A stretch of DNA of 62,311 nucleotides, filler included, from Asterionella formosa (Eukaryota), in the NCBI GenBank assembly GCA_002256025.1. It is 5 parts of 5 records of this genome, joined end to end, with 100 filler letters (N's around TTAATTAATTAA, not from the genome) between each part and the next. Parts side by side here need not be neighbours in the genome. Positions count along the whole stretch, not along the records: positions 12,506 to 24,903 come from NKIB01007563.1; 4 more parts are not named here. One strand, 5' to 3'. Shown one piece after another: positions 4,060 through 60,674 of this stretch. Both the position numbers and the translations under genes were made by a program. The notes beneath the pieces are model-generated. The model was not told the origin of the DNA. It was given only the letters and a program-made list of their open reading frames with translations, and did no database searches. Positions within the stretch are counted from its first letter, which is position 1; every line of letters begins with the position of its first letter.

Positions 4060-4505
4060 CCAATACCCGTACCGGTACCCGGTATCTGGTACTGGTACCA
4101 GTACTATGTTTGATGAAATTGTGGAGAGCCAAAAAGGGCCATCGTATGTACCGGTGGCTTCAGACTACCTGGTACGTGGTACCACCAGTAGATGCGGGAT
4201 GTAGTACATGGTACCTGTTACTGGTATTACTGGCACACATGTGGACCGGTATACCGGTATTTCATATTGTCTACTGGTAATACTGTATAAGAATACCACC
4301 AATCATCGATACAAGCAATTAGATTACAAATATTTTACTCCGGGCACAACATACACAGCAACAGCCAGGAATCAATAATTCCTCTCGGCAGAGCGAGAAT
4401 AAAATTTACGTACCGGTATGCTGCCTTGCCACATTACTTGTATGGGGGTACGTAGGGAACCAGGGACCAGCTATCATAGGGTACCGTACCGGGACGACCA
4501 GGCAG
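4060..4505. repeat. GGTACC/TACCGGTA/TACCWGGTA-rich low-complexity tract
   Basis: Dense GTAC/ACCGGT/CCWGG palindromes upstream of guaA. Similar tracts lie at about 10110-10440, 23960-24220, 24690-24770, 29240-29410, 34060-34140, 41320-42250 and 45070-45510. Confidence 0.75.
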
Positions 4506-9388: not shown

Positions 9389-10440
9389 GGCTCATAAAAA
9401 CTTTGGTGGTGATGCCTTACTTAATGAGCAGACAACGGACCTATTAGAGGAGGGACTTTCCTTTCAACAGACCAAAATTTGGTCCAGAGCACCTCATCAG
9501 GACAGGATTTATCCAAACGAGACCTAAATCAAATTTTTGCTGCCAATATGAGGATCGCTCAGGTTAGGGATAGCATACTGTATCCATATTTGAGGACATG
9601 AACGATGAGTCCAACGCCGAATACTTAAGGAGTGTCTGCCAACTACAGATGATGTAATTTTAATGTTAAATATGCTAATTTTTTGAGGGCGCCCGCATCG
9701 TTGGATATCAGTCTTCATAAACAAGAATAGCTTAATCCATTGATTATCTACAAGTATTAATACATTACTAAAGTTTTTCAAATTACTTAGTCAGCTTTTC
9801 CGTTGAGTTGGAATAATCTTTGGCGGCAATATCCAAAGATGGAGCGGTTGGCGCAACTCAATTACATTTCTTGTCCACTTTTGGCCCCAGTTTGGCGAGG
9901 GCTTGCTTGATGTTGTACCATTTGCTAAATAGAAGCAAGAGTACCTGATACCTGCAAGGTACAGTACTCCAGGTAGAAAGAACGGCTTGTGCTCACCAGC
10001 CAAGATGTATTACTTCCATCAAGGAAGTTGCGGTCATTTTGCTAAAATAATCTATCTGAGATAAAGATAGCTAAAGTTTTAGCTTTCAGCACAATTACCA
10101 CAACTTGCACAGGTACGGAGTACCTGTTACCTGTTACCTGTTACCTGGTACTGGTACCAGGTACCTGATGAAGTAGAGGTATATACCCGGTACTACCAAA
10201 CTATAGTAGAAGTAGAGTACCGTTAGTTGGTCTAGTACCTGGTACTCCTGGAACACAGAGTGCCACATGGTGATGATACTGAGATACTGAGAGCGCAGCA
10301 ATATACCGCTACCTGGTACCAGGTTCCGGTAGAATGGTGTCCAGTGGTATTCATATTTATATCACTACGTATCAAGCAAATTAGGGAGGATTCTACCTGT
10401 TACCTGGTACCAGTTACCAGGTCTGGTACCTGGTACCTGG

Positions 10441-10599
10441 TGAGCAATCCTGCACATCGATACAGATATATATAGAGAGAGTTAGGGTTATATCAAATAC
10501 ATCGGAATTCAATAATGAGAGAACCCGACTAATATCCATTCTATACTTTGATGTCAGTTCAGGAAATGAGTTGTACATAAGGATTAATTTATAAGCTCA
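10441..10599 (+). mobile_element. Putative short 5' LTR (159 bp) of the gag-like retroelement
   Basis: Bounded by inverted termini TGAGC...GCTCA, with a TATA-like GATATATATAG. Homology with the second copy (34143-34299, TGAG...CTCA) starts essentially at this TG. No tRNA-type PBS was seen. Confidence 0.5.
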
Positions 10600-10678
10600 T
10601 ATATTCAATAAATTCTACTACTTCTAGTTAGATACTTCACTTTGAATTCAAAAAGAGTCGAATTAGAAGACAACAAAC

Positions 10679-12187
10679 ATGGCAATGTATTCAAGGGTTC
10701 CTGTGATTCCTTTGATCAAAGACTACAATGTATTGACTATCAAGACTAAAACATTCAGAGTTGCTTTAACCGGTGGAAGGTTTGAATCGTTTGATCAAGA
10801 TATGATCGATGGAAGCTTGGTGGAAGCATTGTTAATTGGAGTGAGTCAATTTCGTGACATGGCTAACACATGTGCCTTTAGCCCTCCTGCAGATACCTTT
10901 TCCTACTTTAAAAGGTGTTTGACCGACATTGCCTTATCGGATTGGTTGAATGTGGAAGTACACCCAGAAGATCAATCTTACAATAGTTTCGATGAAGCGA
11001 TGGTTTTATGGTTAGACGATCGTTTACCAAATGAGAGTTTTCAACATCAACGACAATGGATGCTACGTTATTTATCTAAACCCTTTTCTATGTTGGTAAT
11101 GGATTTCGGAGCTCGTATAAAAACTTTAAACAGGCTACTTCAACTAATGCCTCATCCAGAAGATCAAGTTGGATTGTCAAAAGAAGATATGCGTATTATC
11201 ATTATCCGTTCTATGCCCGATGAGTGGAAACAAGAGTTTGAATTAAATCATGCAAAGACTTCAGACCAATCGATTCGCTCGGTTCTCGCTTACTTCGAGA
11301 GTCAACAATCGTTTAAGGATCGAAACAAGCATCTTCCCAAGAGCAGTTTTCAAACAATCACACAGAACCGTCTTCGCATTGCTGAAGGCAATCGTGTGAT
11401 GTGTCAAGAAAACGAGCGTGTCAGTCGTCAATTCTACAAGGATAATTTTACTCCAAGTGGTCGTGGAAGAGCGCGTGCTATTGTCAATGCAGCCGGACGC
11501 GCATGGGATCGTCAGGCAACTGCTCGTCATCAAGCTCTACAAGCCACCAGTCGTACATACCATGATTATCGTGGTCCTTGCCCGGTACATCCTGAAGGTG
11601 TACATACTTGGGGCAATTGTTTCCAGAATCCTCGTACTCAAGGTGGTCGAGCAGGTCGCATGGCTGGTCGTCATAATGGATATGGCCGTTCCAGTTTCGG
11701 TAGACGAGGACATTTTGGTGGTCGTGGAGGCGGTGCACACAGCAATCCTACGGAAAGCTATCATACTGACACTGCTAACCTTGTGCCTGTTCCACATGCT
11801 CGTATGTTAAATACATGGGGTCATACTACTCATCCATCCAATTGGGGTACCGTGCCATGTGCCGATCCTATTGAGAATACATCGGCCCAGGAAATTTCAG
11901 TGGTCACGAACCCTCCTGCTGGTGGTCAGATAGTGACTTTTGTCCCTACTACACAACAGCAGATTGCTGATCGCCATTACAGAGGTATGTGCGATAATAG
12001 CGATGCTATTTATAATGACTCGTTGAGTATATCTCACGTTAGTCATCACCTGAATAATATTGTTTATTTACAGGTTGAATACACTATGGATACCGCTGTT
12101 AATGTTACGCGGGATGTATATAACTGTATTGCATCAAAGCTGCGAAATACGCCACTTTTCGAAATTTCGTCTACGTATGAGTGTTAA
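10679..12187 (+). mobile_element. Gag-like ORF of an LTR retrotransposon (probably Ty3/gypsy-type); no pol before the scaffold end
   Basis: 502-aa ORF. Capsid-like segment KPFSM.V.DF.ARI..LN.LL..MP...IIRSMPDEWKQEF, a C-x2-H-x4-H-x4-C knuckle (CPVHPEGVHTWGNC) and an RG-rich region. A decayed second copy lies at 34143-36268. Confidence 0.7.
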
Positions 12188-19092: not shown

Positions 19093-19595
19093 GTGGGACA
19101 AGGAAGGAAACTGGGTAGAGAGTTCATGCTCGAGGAAGGGTGTTGGCAAATTCTGAAGGATGATCCAAATAAAAGAGTGGCTTTGGATAGCTATGTCCAA
19201 GATCAGCAGCAAATCGCGAAGAAGAGGCCTGAGTTGCTAGAGGTGCGTCCCATGGGGACGAAAGCAGCAAAGGATAGTAAGCTACTCGCAAATTCTCAAC
19301 TTGTCATTGAACAAAATCTTGTACAGATGTTGGAAATAAAGGTGAAGACGCAACGAGATGAATTTTTGTTAAGATTTTCTCTTAATAGTTATTCAGAGGA
19401 AGCCAAAAGATGATTTGCTATGAAGGCACAACAACCTACGGAGGAGATGGATAACAGTTCAAACCCATCACGCAAATACCCAAGACAGGTTCTTTGTAGT
19501 CAGACATATAAGTTGAAATCAATGTTTCAACTTTTCGTTCATCATCTGCTGATGATGAGGTTTCGATTCTAGAGACTGGATCACAAGATTATTAA
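19093..19595 (+). pseudogene. Harbinger accessory (Myb/SANT-NAM-associated) ORF remnant
   Basis: F.LE.CW.ILKD.P.K...RPMGTKAAK is the NAM-associated signature. It converges on a Harbinger transposase remnant. Confidence 0.7.
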
Positions 19596-19699
19596 ACTAG
19601 TTTGATTTTAGTGAGAGTAAATTACACTATTCATTTCATTATCGCCAACCTAGAACGTGCATTTTACAGACTTACAAATATCAATCTAGAATCAAGTTA

Positions 19700-20200
19700 T
19701 TATCTACTAGTTGTTCTCGTCTTGAATCCACAAGTGCTCAATCAAATTATTGCACAATTGAAAGTGCTCACTTTCAATCATGTAGTTCATTCTAATGTTC
19801 TTGAAATCAAGAAAATGTATGGACATTGCCATGATTCACGTTGTCAACCAAAAATCCATCCTGAATATTGTCAAATCTATAGTCATTTGTATTTTCAGTT
19901 TCCCACTTGTCCTCCATTATCATGTTATGCAAAATAATGCATGCAATGATTACACTGTTCATAGAGCCCATTGACCAAAGTTTACACGGAAGTGCAAGGA
20001 TCCTCGCTCCACTGGCCTGTAGAACTCCAAATGCTTGCTCGATGTCCTTGCGCTGTGGCTCCTGGAAGGTCCGGTAACGCGCGTTTTACGTGGATCTTTT
20101 TAGTTTCGCCTCACTCCTGATGGTTCGTCGGCCAGCTTTCAATTACAAATATTCCCTAAGTAATCAACTTTGCCGTTAAATGGTCATTTGTAAATACAAG
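19700..20200 (-). pseudogene. PIF/Harbinger (plant-type) transposase, 3' remnant
   Basis: Manual translation gives FQEPQRKDIEQAFGVLQA..RILALPCKLWS...MNSVIIACIILHNMIMED, then the terminal motif EHFQLCNNLIEHLW. Confidence 0.85.
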
Positions 20201-20337
20201 TCGTGTTCTAAAAATTCAAATTGTGTACACCTATCACAAAACTACCGGTACAAGTACGGTATTCAGAACCTGGAGGACGGTTTGCTTATATGGTTCACCA
20301 ATTAGTAACTTTGTCTTAGTCATCAATTTCTATATTC

Positions 20338-20458
20338 GTAGTGAGCAGTTTCTAGTCGTAGTCAGCAGTTTCTAGTTGTAGTCAGCAGTTTCTAGTCGTA
20401 GTCAGCAGTTTCTACTTGTAGTCAGCAGTTTCTAGTTGTCCGCAGCAATTTATAGTCG
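20338..20458 (+). repeat. 20-bp tandem repeat, about 6 copies (GTAGTCAGCAGTTTCTAGTY)
   Basis: Head-to-tail units with no spacers, about 215 bp upstream of a transposase ATG. Confidence 0.92.
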
Positions 20459-20672
20459 AATGTACTAGTAAAACAAGAGTCATTTTGAAAATGTCAATGA
20501 ACCACTAAATAAATGAAATTTTAAAACAGAGAGAATGAAACAAAATATTCCAGCGGTATGCACTGGTATATGATGCCGCATTGTTCTGAAATTTTACGTA
20601 ACGACAACTAATAATAAGAGACCAACTTGCACACTGAACGCATCTGCTCCCCCCAATTCAGCAACTCCTGTC

Positions 20673-21672
20673 ATGGCCATTTTAATCACTGATCAGCAGT
20701 TCATGATTCTTGGGCTTGAAAGTGCAGGATTCACTGGCTGGGAGCGTACTTCCAACGCAACAAATGTGGAGCGCTTTCGGTGCTGGTATGGACCAAGACC
20801 AAAGTGTTATGCGAGAAAATTTGGTTCGACCTACAGAATAGTGTAGAGTGTTGCATTGGGAGTGATGCAAATCCATTGCACTTCCTTCTGGCTCTTCGTT
20901 TCTTGAAGGGGTATCCTACAGAAACGGAATTAGCTGGAACATTTGCGATGTCAGAGAAGACAGTGAGAAAATGGACTTCATTTTACATCCAGAAAATTCA
21001 TCTGCTAAAACAAGAAAAGGTGAGAAGGAAGATAGACGATGACTCAATTGTAAAACGTACTACACTGCTTACTTTGGTACTCATATTTGCTTCCTTAAAC
21101 ACTTATTATATACCTGGTAAAAGATTGTATCTGGCTGGGACGATTTCGATGATACTGTTTCCATTTTCTTCATGTCAGTTGATGGAACTCATTTTCCATT
21201 TGAGGAGCCCCGACCATACTCAACAAAGTGGTCTAGTCATAAGTTGGGTGGTAAACCAGGACTTAATTATGAGATTGGTCTAAGCATTTTTGATTCAAAA
21301 TTGTTATGGATCCATGGTCCTACTCCTCCTGGCAGATATAACGATATCACTGTGTTCCGGAGTCATCTCAAGGACAAAATTCCTAATGGCAGGCGTGTAA
21401 TTGCTGATCTTGGGTATAGGGGAGAAGTTGACATTGTTAGCACAAAGAACGAGTTTGATCCCCATAAGATATCCGAATTTAAAGATCGTGTGATGGTTCG
21501 TCATGAGACATTCAACAAGCGAATCAAGATATTTGGTTGCATGAGCAACAAATTTCGCCATGGATTCAAAAACCACAAGGTTGCTTTTGAAGCAATTTGC
21601 GTCATTTTGATTTATGAAATGGAGAATGGCTCTCCACTGTTCGATTCCTATCCCTCAAACCTAGGTAGATAG
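20673..21672 (+). mobile_element. DDE_Tnp_4 (ISL2EU/Harbinger/IS5-like) transposase with one intron and one frameshift
   Basis: ATG at 20673 (MAILITDQQF..ERFRCWYG), frameshift near 20804, then an HTH-like segment LL.ALRFLK.YPTE..LAG.F..SEKTVRKW. Intron 21020-21123 (GT..AG, frame-preserving). Catalytic motifs SVDGTH, IADLGYRG and RHETFNKRIK.F. Confidence 0.85.
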
Positions 21673-21849
21673 CTAATATCAAGCGGTCATGTGAACTTCC
21701 GTCATACTTTCATTTTACTATTAATTAAACAAATGTTTTGCCATGATCCGTTGAGGATTGCAGGCAAGCAAAGCATTCAGTAGATGAGGAAATAGTAGAT
21801 ATCTGCTGAATTTAGTTTTCCACTAGTCTAGTGGCTTCTTGATTAAACA

Positions 21850-22454
21850 ATGCTTCGAATCTTCTTCTTTGCAATGCGTGTCAAACGCTTGGATCAACGG
21901 TCAACCTCTTGGTAAATATGATTTCGAAACATTTTGAGGGAGAATGCCTTGTATTCATCTCTTGTGCTATAAAGGTCGAGAGGCGCAAGTTGAATGTGCT
22001 TGCCTTCATTAATATCTTGTTTCAAAAGTCCTCTTGCTGTTGACTCATGCCATAAAATCATCTGTGGGCCCTCAGCACTTCGCGATTCTTTCACCAATGA
22101 AACATCATGACCATATGCTTCACAATCAGACAGCATAGTACGCTCGTGATTCTTGCCAATAACTTAACGGAGACTCGCCAAATTATTACAAAATTCTTGA
22201 GTTGGAACTTTTTGTATCCCGGCCGCATTTCAAATACGTCTATCGCTGCCATGCTGGCCGGAACAGCACCAGAAAGAATGTCACTGTGAAGGAGACCTTT
22301 CTCCTCACTATTCACCCACTTTTCCTTTTCTGGCACCATGATTGGGGTTCTCACTTATTGCTCTTTGATTGTTGCTTTCAATATCATTGCTTGCTAACTT
22401 GTTCCGTTGTTTCCTTCTATTTGGCTGTTGAAGTTTCATTTCTAAACACGACAT
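21850..22454 (-). pseudogene. Accessory ORF with two W-x2-S-x4-LL-x2-DI-x2-G...R-x2-YK-x-F modules, convergent on the transposase
   Basis: Frameshifted pieces: KWVNSEEKGLLHSDILSG..DVFEMRPGYKKFQLKNF and WHESTARGLLKQDINEG..DLYSTRDEYKAFSLKMFRNHIYQE. Confidence 0.65.
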
Positions 22455-22742
22455 AAAGATGGCAAGAAGTATTTTTTCATAGGTATGCATATCTCGTAGT
22501 CACGTGATCATTTTCGTATTCTATCGCCTAGTGCATGCTTGAGTGATAGTACTAGTACCTGGTAACAGCCAAAGCAAAAAAAAGGTTCATGCGCATAGTA
22601 TCAATACCTGCAAGTTGTTGCTGTAAATGATTTGGACACGGAGTTGGAACACTGACGATGTTCAAATTATTGTATTGTCGTTTTTAGAATGATTAGATTT
22701 CAGAAGCCTTTACTCATAATTTTCTCTTCAAGGGAAATACGC

Positions 22743-23400
22743 ATGAGCATTCAGAAAAAACTTCGAACAGGACGCGGGATTAACCTTACAGTCACGTATC
22801 AACTGCTTATCGATCTCGAAGATACTCAAACATGAACATTTAACTGTCGGGAGCCCTGTCAATTGCGTCCAGAGCTCTACGGATATCCAAATTCCACACT
22901 TTGCCGCTCCACTCAGAATCGATTTCTTTGGTTGAAGAAGTGGAAGATTAAAAACGCCACAGAATACTGGAAGGATTACGCAAAAGCTGTGAGCAAAACG
23001 GGAAAAAAATCGTGGAATCAAACCCTTCTGACAGCCAGGAATCTGAATCTGACTCAAACCCTCCTAGCAGCAGCAAGGAATCTAAATCGTCAGACGAGGA
23101 CCACATGGAAGCGTCTCCACAACAAACATCAAGGCGTCAATACCACCCTGATTGGTCGTCTCCTCAACTGAAAGTTTCGAAAGACCCTTGTCATAGTTCT
23201 TGTACAGTCTCTGTTGCAATGTCTTCCACGCCCATTTCGAGGAAGCGATTTTTGGCTTACCAGGCAGGATAGTATGATCTCTGTATCATAAAATCCGTCA
23301 TGTGCCTCGCCTCTGGACCAAGAGCTACGCCTACCATCCTGACCTATACAATAGCTACCCAATGAATGATATTATGAGGTGCGTTGCTACAAAAAATATT
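22743..23400 (+). pseudogene. Second accessory ORF remnant, divergent from the previous ORF
   Basis: MSIQKKLR..YQLLIDLEDTQT*TFNCREPCQLRPELYGYPNSTLCRSTQNRFLWLKKWK, followed by a Ser/Glu-rich stretch. Contains an internal stop and a frameshift. Confidence 0.5.
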
Positions 23401-24903
23401 CATATCATCATATGTAGCTAGCTACCAGCAACTGGTAGATGAATAGAGCCGAAGGGCGAAGGAACGAATTTGTGAAAGTTTAGCATCAATTAATCAAAAT
23501 TCTCCAAAGGCTGCGGATGTAGCAAAGGTTGATTGTAGAGTAAATTGGTTAGTAAAACAAAAGAAATTGCATGTTAGCGATAGCAAGAACCAGTGACCGC
23601 TTTCAATCATCACATTTGGTGAGTTTGCTGTTTATTTGCATTTCTGTGTGGTGATGTGCAAGATGCAACGTTGGAGATGAATATTGAAAAGGTGCACATG
23701 CGCAACAATAATATTTCAAAATGACTTCGTGACATGTCGCCGCTGCACCACATTGCACCACCATAGACCTACTGGTATTTTGTAACATGGTCCCTTGTTG
23801 TTGGGGTGGTGCACGGACAACACACATCACAATTACATCCCGGTAGTTCGAAGTTTATTAAAATCTGGGTACAGCCAGTGTTAGGTATTTGTTTCTGGGT
23901 GTCGGTATGGAGACGACCCGTCCATAAATACGCCTTACTACACATCATGTCATAGTTTTATTGGTACCAGGTACCAGGTACAAGTATCATATGTGTGAAC
24001 GACATCAGTTTATTCTATAAATAATTTTATGTACCGGTGGTACCAGGGTACAGGTAGTTCTTTGCAAATACTTTGATGAACGGAACTCTTGATGTCAATA
24101 TACCAGGTAGTGTACAGTTCCGCACTACGGTAATCTAACTCAAATTTTACTCCAAAGTACTATACCGGTCGGTATATAGGTTACTTACTACCTGGTTCCC
24201 TGGGTACCTGGTACCACATGCATTTATTCACTGCCAACATAAGCAACAAGTACTGTTTCTACTTTTATTTTGTAGGACCTTTTTTCATTTGTCCTAACCA
24301 CTCCTATGTAAGACAAAATAACCAGAACACTCCTTTGCGTGGTTTACTATTAGCTAAGACATCATCAGATGTTATACGAATTGCAGATTGCAGATCAGAA
24401 CCTTCATCAGTAGAAGCGTCAACCGGACATGCAGTCGGCAGAGAAGGGTTTTGTGTCGAACAGTCATCGATCCCCAGATCTTCCGTCGAGTCACGCACAC
24501 CCTTGTATTTGATTCACTTCTGATAGGCGATAAAAGAGTATAGCGTCGATGTGGTAGACAAAGGACAGCGGTGAGGCCGTCGACAGAACCTCATGGTGTT
24601 TTAATTCAACAAGAACAGAAGTGTGTGTGATCTTGTCTGTATGCATACCGGCACGGCAATTCGAATGTCGTCCTGATGCTCCCTTATTTAGTCTGGTACC
24701 AGGTGCCAGGCGGGGTACAGTACAAGTACAAGTACCTACCGGTATGTACAGTCCTGTGTACCGGTACTCTGTTTCAATACTGTGCCAGTATTGACAATTA
24801 ATTCTACCCCCAATACTACCATTTTTTGTCGTAGTGAAAGCTAGTGCACTAGTTAACTAACATGATGCACGTACAAAGCATGCACTGTGTGTGAGTGGGC
24901 GGT

Positions 24904-25293: not shown

Positions 25294-27700
25294 TTATTCC
25301 CACCCAATTGATTTCCATAAATGGCGTGCAGGTAGGGAAACATAGTAATTATCTTTTTCTAATTGCTCCAATACCTCCTTGGGCTTCACTGGTTTCCTAG
25401 ATCGAATAGATCCTTTTTGCGGTTTCAAGGCAGGCACAAAAAACGCAGCGGACAGAATGTTGTTAAACTCAACCACACTCAGTTCAGTTGTATCATTGCA
25501 TATAGTGTGCCTTTTGCAAAGAACATACGTTTATGAGCTTTAATTTCGGATGAAAATTTCAAGGAACGTATAGAGGGTAAAAGAATGGTAGTATGGTTCG
25601 AAAAAATTACATTTCCCCAAAGAAATAATTTTCCCGGAACAATATATGAATTTGACCCATCCCCCTTCTCCCAAATCACTTCAATCCAATCAAACCATTC
25701 CCGATCAGAGATCCCAGCTTTTGAATCATTTTTCCATTTCGGATGATGACATCTCAAAATAGTACTTTGTCCTGGAGCATTGGCGTGAATTCTGAAATTG
25801 TAGTAAAAATCAATCCTAGTTACAGTCACGGATTTCCCTTCATTATAAATTAGACTTTTCGCTCTTTCCACCGCTGAATTGGTAATTTTGGAGGTAAACC
25901 TGGTTCATTCGCCTCAGAGTATCTGTTTGGTACTTCTGGACAACTCCTTTTCTTAAAAAAGGATTCCCAATCTTTAGGAATAGTTCGAAAAATATATAAC
26001 GAATCGAAAATGTACTTCAATAGGCCAAGTAACAGTTGATGGAGCACCTCGAAGGGTGTTGCTCCAAATAATCCTTCAGGATCACCACCAAAGTAATGCG
26101 ACATCAATGCCGGGATGATTGGATTATGTGAAATGACGCGGCACCACTCATTTCGTGTTGCGAACTTACTATTAGTCTGATTCACACCAAAAAATGTTGG
26201 TATAGATGGTAATTTTCCATCTGGATAAGTTTCTTTCTCCAAATATTGCTTCAGAAATTTGTATGCATCGCCAACTTCTCGCAGTTCACATTCTATATCC
26301 GGATTGTCAGCGTCTTCTGTACTTACCAAGCAATCTCGGCAAAAATGTTGTCGATATAATCCATTACCTCCACGGAAACCGCAAATTTTTATATGTTCCT
26401 GTGTATCTCCAACTACCATTCCAATTTGAAAATAAACTTTTTTATACCACAGACCATGCACCCAAATGTCATAGAATTTAAGAATGGATCTTGAAAAGGT
26501 TCTTATAAAAATCCGGTGACAGCATGATATAACTTCAGTCGAGAAAGAGAGATATCATGATTACCTCCTGACTTCTTAGTATCCATTTGTTTCTCCAAGT
26601 CACTAACTTAGATATCTGGTAATAATGACACGAGTTGCCACGCATCAACTTTTTTCCTTCCTTCCAATCTTAAGTTTAAGATTGTTACTAAGATGGATGT
26701 TCTGAGTGCTTCATTTGTTTATCAATAGGTGAACCGTCGCTAAAGACAGTCAATGCCAGAAAGAAATGCCCAGGCTTTAAAACTCTGTTTTCCGTAGCTT
26801 CAGAATTGTTAAATGCATTTTCAAACCAAGTGGCAGAGGTAACTTCGTCATATATATTCGTTTTCCACAGTTTGTAAGCTTCCTGTGTGGATGACATGCA
26901 AAATTTTCCATGGTGTCAGGATCACGTAACAACGATGCCATGAGTTGTACTCTTGCAAAGAAATGTAATGTCCGTGGAATAGAGATTATTCCATTATTCT
27001 CAAGAAGAATTTCTTTTTTCAACAGTTCACCACCTATTAACCTTGGTGGAAATTAATCATCCCTTTTTTCAAGGTTTGATAGGAAGGAGCTTGATTCTTT
27101 CCATGACAATATTTCATTCTCTGTGCTTAGAATAACCATTTCATAAGATGATCGAAGTACATTGGTGGTAGATAGTTCTCGTTCAGGAATAGCATGAGTT
27201 CTAATTCGATTGGATGCATGTTTAGCAAATGTTTTTTGGGAATTTGGAATTGAACAAGTAGAGGAATTTTCATAGATTCCTTGGGAATGAAACCACTTCG
27301 ATCTTGGTACTCAGCGTAATGCATAGTATCATTATCTAACCAATAATTTCTGTTAATTCTATTTCTTCTTCACCTTGCCCTTATCGATTTGAAGTCACTG
27401 AGATACTTTCATCATAGAATGGAAATAACAAATCCTGGTCATCTAATTGTGAAGCAGATTCTTCCGTTTGCAAAGTATCAGAAATAAGAACGTTGGGAAA
27501 TGAGGAAGAGACACCTGACTTTCCTGTTTCATTTAAATAACTTGATAGTTTACCGCCACAATACATAGTTCGATTGCGAATTCCAGAAATGCGGTGTTCT
27601 TCCAAGCAGTGATGGCACAAACCAAAATAGTAAAATTTTCGATTGTTGCAGTTTTGATTGTGAAAGTCAGAAGGAGATTCTTCCCAAATTCATAGTTGCA
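25294..27700 (-). pseudogene. Plavaka-family transposase (CACTA-related), decayed
   Basis: Ordered motifs: YDEVTSATWF, LTVFSDGSPID, MVVGDTQEH.KICG..CRDC, FGGDPEGLFGATPFEVLHQLLLGLLKY, LRCHHP..WFDWIEV.W...VPGKL. Many stops and frameshifts. Confidence 0.8.
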
Positions 27701-37384: not shown

Positions 37385-37484
37385 NNNNNNNNNNNNNNNN
37401 NNNNNNNNNNNNNNNNNNNNNNNNNNNNTTAATTAATTAANNNNNNNNNNNNNNNNNNNNNNNNNNNNNNNNNNNNNNNNNNNN
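37385..37484. other. Artificial scaffold linker
   Basis: N44-TTAATTAATTAA-N44. Confidence 0.97.
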
Positions 37485-38993
37485 ATGCCCTCACACAAAC
37501 GCGCCACTTACATCCGCATTGTGTGTGCCGATCGCCCTGAAAAAACCATTCCCCAACGCGTTCGTTGGACTGCTGGGGGTGATCGTGTCATTTACACTGG
37601 CAATGTCAGCACCAAGACTGCTGATCTCACTACTGCAAAATGTTTGTTCAACAGCACCATCAGTACCCCCGGTGGCCGCTTCATGACTCTGGATTTATCT
37701 GATTTTTATCTGGAAAGTCATCTTGCACCTGCCGAGTATGAATACGTGCGCATCCCTATATGGATGATTCCCCCACACATTCAAACCCTCTACAACCTAG
37801 CTCCAAAAATCATTGATGGGCACATCTATGCCGAAATCCGTCGTGGCATGTATGGGCTGCCTCAAGCTGGTAAACTTGCCAATGATCAACTTGCTCAGTT
37901 CTTGCTACCACATCATTACCTCCCCTGCCCAGTCACCCCTGGCCTATGGATGGATACCACCAGTGATCTCATGTTTACGCTTGTTGTTGATGATTTCGGT
38001 GTACGTTACACCAAACGTAGTGACGTGGACCGTCTCCTCACCACTTTACGTACCAAATACCGACTCACAACTGATTGGACTGGCTCTCGATACATTGGCC
38101 TTACACTGACGTGGGACTATGAACATCGCACAGTTGACCTCACTATGCCTGGTTACATTGTTTGTGCTCTACAACGCTTCACGCACTCCACTCCAACACA
38201 CCCACAACATGCCCCCCATGCCTGGACTGCACCTAGTTATGGCGCTCGCCAGCAATTTGTTGTTTCTGATGTCACCCCTGTCCTTGACCTCCATGATAAA
38301 ACACGTGTGCAAGAGATTCTTGGTACTTTATTGTATTATGCCCGTGCTATTGATTGTACTATGTTGCCGGCCCTTGGTACATTGGCTACACAACAAGCAA
38401 CCCCCACTGTGGCTACCTTGACTGCTATTACTCAACTTCTCAATTATTGTGCCACGCATCCTGAGGCCACACTTCGCTTTACTGCCAGTGACATGGTCCT
38501 CCATGTTGAAAGCGATGCTTCCTATCTCTCTGAAACACGTGGTCGCTCCCCCGCTGCCGGCATTCACTTTCTCAGCTGTAAACCCGTGTCTCCCCCTAGC
38601 CTCACTACATCCATCCCTCCTCTTAACGGTGCTATTTACGTCCACTGTCAAATTCTTAAGGAGGTTGTATCAAGTGCTGCTGAGGCCGAATTAGCTGCTT
38701 TATTCCACAATGGCAAAGAGGCATATGCTATTCGCACCATTCTTGCTGAGCTTGGTCATCCCCAACCTTCTACCCGTATTGTCACCGATAATAGCACTGC
38801 CAGTGGCATCGCCAATGATACTGTCCGACAAAAACGTTCCAAAGCTATGGATATGCGTTATTACTGGGTACGCGATCGGGTTCGCCAAGGCCAATTTCTT
38901 GTATACTGGAAAAAAGGTAGTTTGAATCGTGCTGATTATTTCACTAAACATCATCCCGCTTCCCATCATATGTTGATCATAGAAACTTTTTGA
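37485..38993 (+). mobile_element. Ty1/copia (CoDi-type) pol fragment: RT and RNase H
   Basis: Motifs RVRWTAGGD, GMYGLPQAG, LVVDDFG, ESDASYL, SSAAEAE, TDNSTA, SKAMDMRYYWVRDR and ADYFTKHH. The 5' end is cut by the scaffold start. Confidence 0.95.
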
Positions 38994-57984: not shown

Positions 57985-59212
57985 TGGTTCTTATGTAGAT
58001 AGATACAATCGAAACAAAATGACAGTGCGGAATTACAAAGAGCAATAGAAGCGATCAAAATGGAGCATGGAAGCAATCAAATCGGAAATTCGACAATTGA
58101 ATCTATGATCACATTCAGTGTTTGACTGTTGTACTCACCAATCTGCTCTAACAAGTGTAACACGCAGCAGATAATGGCCGCATAAGAAAGTAGAAAGTTC
58201 CTGTTGCAAGCCCGAATTGAGTAACGGCAGGCAGGATAGCGATTCTATACTAGCTTCTAATCGATTATCTGCATTGTTTACAACTGATGATCAACCTTGT
58301 ATTTATGATAAAGAATTAACCTACTGGTATATGTAATCGAAATCAACACAAACAATAGTTTCAGAATCTGGGAGTAAAGAATAAGCAAGCTTGTAGTTAC
58401 CCAGTAACAGAAATGAGGGACCTCGTTTTGCAATCTCTCCATTGGAAGTACTCCACAACGAGCCCTGCTATCGATGGTGAGAAGCGCGCCAATTGGAACC
58501 GGTCAGGACAACCAATAAATGATATTAGCGTACGGCTTTTTGAATTCCGTGTTGATTTTTTTAGTCGCGGAAAACGTCGAAAAAGTCCTCGATACATGGG
58601 GGCTGGGCAATCTATATAGCACCGAGTTTATCTCAGAAGGAGCTTCCACTTAAGTACTTGTCTACATGGAGGGTGCGGTACATCTCCTTTAATCACGATA
58701 CCACGTTGCCGGCGCGAGACTCTATGTAGCAACACCTGATGATACCGTCATTTTGTCTAAAATAGAACGGGGTCATTCTCGACCAAGACCAAAGCAAATA
58801 AAGTCTTTGTCTAAGTGGCTGCTGGTTGCTGTAATATGTTTGCATTTTCAACCAGCCAGGGTGACGTATGGTGACGTCTGTAAAGACCCCCCACTTCAAT
58901 GGGCTTTGGTCTTGGTCAATGCGGTGAAAGTGCTCTTAGTATGTCATGCAAGAAGAAACTCCATAGTTGTTTGTGTTGTAAGTAATGGTCCCAGTTACCA
59001 GGGTCCCAGGTAATGTTGTGGATAAGCCCTCGCCAGCTTGCTTTGTAAAGAGGAGTAGCGATAAAGGATTGGCATCCTGATACTTACAATCTGAAAACTT
59101 GGAGGCGAGGTCGATTATACAAAACGCACTTTTTGCTAATAATAAATGTCATTAGTGTTGTATCGATGCCATCATTTGACAAGGTGCTAATTCAGCAACT
59201 CATACTGGCCCC

Positions 59213-60674
59213 ATGAACGCCAAGTTTTCGAACGAACAGGTGCTCCACTCAGCTTCAGCATCAGATTATCCTAGTCGAACGAAACATGTAACCATTAGTT
59301 TCGCGCAATCAAGAAATGGAGGAAGAGATGACGCGGATGATTGTGACAAAAACGATGAAATGAGCATCATTAGTTCGCTGTCGGGGTTTTCCGGCGGTTC
59401 TTCTGATATATATAACTATGGAGGGTTGATGCGCTTCGTTCGTACCGGTATTCTCTACGGCCGAAGCACAGAAGTGAGTATTCTATTGAATGCTTTTACA
59501 CGTGCCAGGAATGGACCTTCTGAAGTGGTCCTTGTTTCAGGCCAAGCAGGCTCTGGAAAGAGCAAAGTCGCCGAGTCCCTTCGAGGCCCTGTAACTTCGA
59601 TCGAATTTTCCGGTTACTTTGTTGCAGGAAAGTATGACCAGCTTAGACTGGACGAACCCTTTAGCGCGATTGTGAACGCGTTCAATGACTTGGCTGAAAT
59701 CATAAGTCTCACTGAAGGTTCCCAGTCGCGAAGAAACTACATAAAGGAAGCTCTCGGGGATGAAGCTCATTTGCTTTGCAAGTTCATCCCGAATATTTCG
59801 TTTTTACTTGGACAAAAGAAAAACCCACAGGAGGTGGTGGGGGTGGTTAACATGATGAACGTTATTTCCAAATTGACTCTGGCCTTGCGAAGATTTGTAG
59901 GGCTTGTTGCTACAAAAGAGAGCCCTTTGTGTATATTCCTTGACGACATTCAATGGGCAGATCAAGCATCCATGCAAGTGATTCGAGGCCTCATTGCAGA
60001 CATTAGGAGCAAACATGTTCTGCTAGTGTTCGCCTATCGAGATAATGATTTGAACAGTGCAAGAATTGACGAGTTCTTTCAATGTTCTGAGGATGAGCAA
60101 ATGGTGCATTTGACCAAGATATCAATTGGTCATCTTGATGTTGAGTCAGTACATGAATTAATTCAAGATCAATTGGAAATGATAGCTTCTGAACAATCTA
60201 TGTTATTAAGCGAATGCGTATGGAAGAAAACTTTGGGAAATCCTTTCTTTGTACTTGAACTTCTGGATGAGTTACTTGGCAGGGGGTTCATGGTTCGGAC
60301 AGATTCATCATGGTTGATTGATTTAGAGAAAATTCATTCCGAGACCAATGTGATATCTGAATAGAATAAATGGCTACATCCCCATGTCAGATCTGTTTTA
60401 ACATATGCCGCATATCTTGGCTTTCAGTTTCGACGCGATGTACTGGAAAACATTATGATCTCTAAATACATATCATCCAGTTTGATTTTGATTCTATTTG
60501 ATATTGATATTGCAGAGATTAAGGACCGAATTACACAAGATCAATATCATGACAGGGTTTCCAGAATCCTGGATGCTGCAACTGCCGAAGGTATTATCGA
60601 AAAATGCGATGATTCTGAAATCAAAATGAAGTTTGTGCATGACTGCTCTCAGACTGTTTTTTATGATTCCACTC
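59213..60674 (+). pseudogene. STAND-type/AAA_16 P-loop ATPase, disrupted
   Basis: LYGR..E, Walker A GQAGSGKS, GKYDQ..EPFSA, Walker B IFLDDIQWAD and TLGNPFFV. There is an in-frame TAG at 60362. The same frame resumes (AAYLG..F, KFVHD) and is then cut by an LTR. Confidence 0.85.

Follow-up and report, generated by a model that had tools for sequence, protein, structure and literature searches.

A widespread three-gene DNA transposon lineage with a CWG target site, seen from a decayed copy in Asterionella formosa

Transposons of the PHIS superfamily differ in their target-site duplications (TSDs) and in the proteins they carry. According to the available part of Han et al. 2015 (PMC4482050), Harbinger elements duplicate TWA, Pangu elements ANT and ISL2EU elements, which carry THAP and YqaJ domains, AT, while NuwaI elements duplicate CWG, have GGG termini and two open reading frames (ORFs), and occur in animals only. 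The portions available of work on zebrafish Harbinger3_DR and rice Ping/Pong describe a Myb-like partner protein that is required for nuclear entry, makes contact with the transposase and binds motifs in the subterminal regions (PMC9710019, PMC2836001). On diatoms these sources say little: in the supplement of Han et al., as far as available, the diatom names searched occur in the genome list only (PMC4482050), and uncharacterised diatom transposase elements are mentioned without detail in the accessible text of another paper (PMC2806351). Here we describe a decayed transposon in a stretch of 62,311 nucleotides (nt), filler included, from Asterionella formosa (the window). Several contigs are joined in the window, and the transposon sits on one of them, G000:C7563 of the 68-Mb eukaryotic assembly. 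Public sequencing runs in which the stretch occurs bear labels of algal, lake or freshwater metagenomes, or none.

A preliminary description of this locus had recognised a transposase gene (+) followed by ORF2 (-) and ORF3 (+), all decayed, and we located the three as described. It had let the locus run to 23400, which lies within an unrelated repeat, and had reported no terminal inverted repeats (TIRs), of which the left one is present beside its target site. The copy is a dead, right-truncated member of a cut-and-paste family that targets CWG, and consists of the following parts:
20062..20064, plus strand: CTG, the left-hand copy of the CWG TSD at the target site
20065..20126, plus strand: left TIR, first letters GAAGGTCCGG, shared with a sister copy
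20313..20472, plus strand: subterminal 20-bp tandem repeats
20673..21672, plus strand: DDE_Tnp_4 transposase pseudogene, ATG at 20673, stop at 21670-21672
21843..22339, minus strand: ORF2 pseudogene, basic, two tandem repeats predicted to have three helices each
22743..23252, plus strand: ORF3 pseudogene, 5' half (predicted helical domain and start of the linker)
23253..24474: unrelated repeats (23253-23497, 23494-23777 and 23769-24474) where the remainder of ORF3 and a right TIR would be expected

That the three genes form one transposon is borne out by divergent relatives, in many of which they travel together inside elements bounded by TIRs and TSDs. A metagenome scan with the transposase alignment gave 120 relatives, from which 80 loci were kept and grouped into 56 clusters at 85% identity, and linkage was assessed outward from these transposase loci. 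Of the 56 clusters, 25 contain ORF3 and 21 contain ORF2, and where a gene was not found the flanks are mostly short. When only clusters whose best member per side offers 1 kb or more of flank on both sides are counted, all 15 have ORF3 and 10 have ORF2. The ORF2 profile was built from independent proteins; the ORF3 profile is partly circular, because it was iterated on the transposase loci themselves. No accessory-gene match came from reversed frames, nor from a control set of 26 loci (137 kb) around other DDE_Tnp_4 transposases in this genome. Complete CWG-flanked TIR pairs enclose all three genes in the metagenome loci L129 (4,847 bp), L130 (5,167 bp) and L141 (5,173 bp); the termini scan covered 30 loci, and the remaining candidate pairs, with different short repeats, were put down to chance. 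Linkage, which the preliminary description had proposed to check together with orientation, was thus upheld, but the arrangement was not: the 14 clusters holding both accessory genes show six layouts, with the gene order of the window copy in three and a head-to-head pair of accessory genes in nine. The accessory genes are spread over a quick transposase tree, bar one group of five rows with short flanks, and accessory and transposase distances correlate (rho 0.63, 0.62 and 0.59; 0/2,000 permutations), to which shared hosts may contribute. We regard the existence of a three-gene transposon lineage as practically certain; the family is widespread, and its hosts are likely diatoms.

Aligning copies, as had been suggested, defined the ends of the family as TIRs beginning with (G/C)AAG next to a CWG target. 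GAAG or CAAG termini were found in the window copy, L037, L039, L129, L130 and L141. The left TIR flanks the sister copy on G000:C2534 (L039 543-7557) in both orientations, with 78% identity over 69 nt, and the 20-bp subterminal repeat recurs within the right ends of L039 and L048, so that the repeats occur at both ends. A pattern of CWG plus terminus had 151 genomic matches against none for a control pattern. When CWG was left out of the pattern, it still preceded 24 of 30 distinct termini, and TWA none (first 30 of 97 matches). The 3-bp duplication was exact in five of six paired copies, and a second subfamily with CAAGTTG termini (C541) has CTG on both flanks. Many of the matches to this one terminus pattern are non-autonomous derivatives of ∼0.9-1 kb with GAAGGTCCGG termini, for example G000:C14603 (L040 771-1754), C1113 and C2380. 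CCTGCAAGTTGTTGC at 22608, considered as an internal terminus, failed the terminus scan. GTACCWGGTAC and CTGGTACCAGG motifs are numerous at window 4069-4230, 10121-10450 and 23958-24210; they may be preferred targets or footprints, since several insertion flanks of the family read GTAC-CWG-GTAC.

No right TIR was found anywhere on the contig of the window copy. Three sisters ∼90% identical to it (C5695, C2534 and C12678, i.e. L038/L039/L048) carry internal deletions that join the transposase straight to a right arm. This arm codes for the C-terminal half of ORF3 (tblastn with the ORF3 of L117, E 8e-18 to 8e-11) and terminates in the right TIR in C2534 and C12678. Hence, the full element had the order TIR-transposase-ORF2-ORF3-TIR; among public contigs over the window and the sister right arm, no piece bridges the two ORF3 halves.

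The window transposase matches DDE_Tnp_4 (E 4e-5) and has two extra bases, a frameshift, near 20808-20811 relative to a sister copy. A GT-AG intron at 21020-21123 is suggested by comparison with relatives, which at this position are either intronless or have an insert; in public contigs over the window and the sister right arm no spliced joint was found, and a contig from an RNA run crosses the intron unspliced. The second exon is open and keeps D (SVDGTH), D (IADLGY) and E (RHETFN), the catalytic residues that are invariant in 37/37 transposases. PF13359 scored above cut-off in 8/8 full-length relatives, in which a weak DDE_Tnp_1 was the only further match and none of the eight had a THAP domain. 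In a quick tree whose other rows are the HARBI1-like Harbingers of this genome and one long-branch Streptomyces sequence, the family transposases group in a clade separate from those Harbingers. That Streptomyces transposase, a weak match (E 8e-3), was the sole database relative, and scans of IMG/VR with the ORF2 and transposase alignments found none. A GTDB scan returned one contig (L237) from a bacterial metagenome-assembled genome, with an intron-split transposase, ORF2 and ORF3, which is likely eukaryotic contamination of the bin.

ORF2 reads from 22339 to 21843 and keeps both W-x2-S-x4-LL-x2-DI-x2-G modules; it is interrupted by one frameshift and by stop codons at 22166 and 21896. Modelling predicts two three-helix (FF/homeodomain-like) repeats, as in a DNA binder of the helix-turn-helix type, and 139 of 150 ORF2 proteins have a net basic charge. 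At E<=0.001 the profile collects 2,728 representatives (clusters at 50% identity), and an Atlas look-up gave no usable match. P0023, P0053 and P0160 comprise ORF2 relatives with 8-9 repeats and one ORF2 relative fused to a SAP domain (E 4e-13). At G000:C5757:963-2665 (L042) an ORF2(-)/ORF3(+) pair has long open frames with no transposase and no terminus within 9 kb, a candidate case of domestication or of a divergent element.

ORF3 starts with the ATG at 22743, has a TGA at 22833 and frameshifts, and retains the QLL.D.E..C..RPELYG.P.S....QNR motif. It ceases to match sister C14404 at 23252, and 23253-23400 belongs to the unrelated repeat. The full gene is longer and has two domains; this copy retains its 5' half and has lost the part for the C-terminal domain, predicted to be HSP20-like. 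From structural models, the whole protein is predicted to begin with a helical, Myb-like domain, which a disordered linker connects to a beta-sandwich of HSP20/CS-like type. Sequence profiles of HSP20/alpha-crystallin or CS did not match the C-terminal domain. Foldseek against the PDB and viral structures gave nothing at E<=0.001, and NCBIfam matched 0/7. The novelty of the accessory proteins, as first proposed, holds in that neither the ORF2 nor the ORF3 family has a consistent Pfam match, but ORF3 shows a weak Myb/SANT-like lead, because of which it may be a divergent partner of the Harbinger type. GT-AG joins from ORF3 into the downstream frame read through in 18/18 loci, the best join being picked among many, and an apparent ‘fourth gene’ looks more like the last ORF3 exon than a separate gene. 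An IXI-type tail motif was dropped because its residues coincide with the likely splice donor. The frame after ORF3 has sub-threshold importin-beta-binding (IBB) matches in 2 of 22 loci (E 5e-4 and 8e-3; L130:2625-3269 and L178:1281-2393, both minus), with similar basic stretches seen by eye in L154, L117, L126, L132 and L115; it is possibly a nuclear-import module. In one cluster, L144:2856-5063 (+), a 736-aa frame lies between transposase and ORF3 with no Pfam match at 0.001, and its C-terminal part presumably resembles a helix-hairpin-helix glycosylase fold.

We favour with fair confidence a transposon family with three genes, short TIRs and a CWG target, whose transposase likely depends on both accessory proteins. 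By analogy with Harbinger3_DR and Ping/Pong, ORF3, present in every well-flanked relative, would be the obligate partner. It may bind the subterminal repeats, those at 20313..20472 being likely candidate sites for an accessory protein, and could deliver the transposase to the ends of the element and into the nucleus; the HSP20-like domain would act as an oligomerisation/assembly or chaperone module. ORF2, absent from some relatives, might be a second, less essential DNA binder. Two observations weigh against the linkage. Some ORF2 relatives carry 8-9 repeats, and ORF2 also occurs apart from the transposase, an outcome that the preliminary description had named as adverse: among nine places in the same genome, four are by a transposase, two by ORF3 only and three alone. 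Family termini or TIR-like DNA lie near three of the five transposase-less places, and none near C5757 or C13136. The lineage is probably undescribed. Going further, it is conceivable, though less than an even bet, that this is an ancient algal PHIS lineage which captured an alpha-crystallin/CS-fold domain, fused it to a DNA-binding partner as a chaperone or anti-silencing module, and added a new tandem helix-turn-helix family.

Somewhat improbable is that the family is already catalogued, as a Harbinger/ISL2EU entry of Repbase or as NuwaI reaching into algae, in which case one accessory gene would be a divergent Myb partner and the other a passenger. The Myb/SANT lead of ORF3 fits this, as does the CWG TSD, the defining mark of NuwaI in the available text (PMC4482050), which however gives NuwaI GGG termini, two ORFs and animal hosts, against (G/C)AAG and three ORFs here. 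Harbinger4_TP likewise has GGG termini, and TTA/TAA/TGA flanks, in the accessible part of its source (PMC12730594), and the literature searched, in the parts available and with Repbase outside its scope, described neither a CWG family with three genes nor an HSP20-like domain encoded by a transposon. As to mechanism, the main competing reading, which we consider unlikely, is that in the same three-gene element the HSP20-like domain and ORF2 provide chromatin counter-defence (anti-silencing), the transposase acting alone or with one partner. Such a role would recall the Arabidopsis Harbinger-derived HDP1/HDP2, described in the portion available as working with the alpha-crystallin-domain proteins IDM2/IDM3 in a complex that counters silencing (PMC5339849), as well as the chromatin genes TET, SET and VANC that other DNA transposons carry (PMC12730594, as far as accessible), and the SAP fusion points the same way; but no accessory protein has a chromatin-enzyme domain, the comparison with plants is one of analogy and concerns host proteins, and the fold of ORF3 is equally CS/p23-like. 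Chance proximity of three pseudogenes (nested pieces or host genes) in a repeat-rich region, for which one could cite the nest of insertions, the missing right TIR and the solitary ORF2 copies, is largely refuted and most improbable given linkage in 15/15 against 0/26 controls, complete TSD-bounded elements, and the end of ORF3 inside the right TIR of the ∼90% identical sisters.

The transposon was inserted into another element, and a further repeat separates two of its genes:
19093..20064: host element, a canonical Harbinger (PF04827, E 3e-15)
19093-19413, plus strand: fragment of the second gene of the host Harbinger, which we take to merit a Myb/NAM label
19810-20064, minus strand: 3' part of the host Plant_tran transposase, interrupted at 20064
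22485..22551: short repeat, high in copy number, in the ORF2-ORF3 interval

In public contigs (4/4 sequencing runs) the uninterrupted host Harbinger runs on past 20064 as a loose end. Elsewhere in the window, decayed frames at 25479-26554 (-) without a Pfam match have CxxC and FEVLHQLLLG motifs, presumably reminiscent of Plavaka-like transposases; a frame at 10667-12187 (-), also without a Pfam match, we take to be Gag-like. A copia-type reverse transcriptase fragment lies at 37437-38993 (+; RVT_2, E 3e-4), and an AAA_16/STAND-type NTPase frame at 59180-60364 (+; E 7e-28).

With these results, two large ‘hypothetical protein’ families find their place in a transposon, and a PHIS lineage that current profiles miss is defined by termini of its own, a CWG target and a set of three genes. 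With 151 exact terminal matches, mostly short non-autonomous elements, the family is still shaping the genome of Asterionella formosa. If the capture of an alpha-crystallin/CS-fold domain is true, the element would be a mobile counterpart of the plant pairing between Harbinger-derived and alpha-crystallin-domain proteins, and if the domain is functional, transposition or anti-silencing would be linked to a chaperone fold, in parallel to the plant IDM complex; the apparently intact ∼5-kb members L130, L141 and L129 make the question testable.

Compared with HSP20-like chaperone folds (alpha-crystallin, CS/p23), the ORF3 domain has ∼100 extra residues and no sequence similarity, is fused to a helical domain and is encoded by a transposon. 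The element has an IS5/Harbinger-type DDE transposase, TIRs and a short TSD, the marks of the PHIS superfamily, within which the ANT TSD of Pangu/Harbinger2 does not fit. The motif spacing of its transposase is presumably IS5/ISL2-like, as in ISL2EU, but the earlier ISL2EU-like assignment fails on a TSD that is CWG and not AT, and on the lack of GG termini, THAP and a YqaJ partner, YqaJ being absent from the Pfam families listed for ORF2, ORF3 or the 22 downstream frames. The three-gene lineages PHISTA (TA TSDs, TET/JBP) and HarbingerS (SET) also combine a PHIS transposase with extra accessory genes, one without Myb/SANT, in the available part of their description (PMC12730594), and neither of their domains was found in the window family. 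NuwaI has in common with the family a DDE transposase lacking other recognised domains, a 3-bp CWG TSD, short TIRs and a length of ∼4.5-5 kb; of the marks by which Han et al. 2015 (PMC4482050) tell these groups apart, CWG is the only one shared. From NuwaI the present family is set apart by description: (G/C)AAG termini, three genes in 14 clusters, no Pfam Myb/SANT match, an HSP20-like domain and hosts that are, by inference, not animals. Compared with canonical PIF/Harbinger elements (Harbinger3_DR, Ping/Pong), it has CWG instead of TWA, two accessory genes, and a transposase distant from this genome's HARBI1-like Harbingers, but shares with them DDE_Tnp_4, a 3-bp TSD, subterminal repeats, many non-autonomous derivatives and, by analogy, a helical partner that likely binds these repeats.
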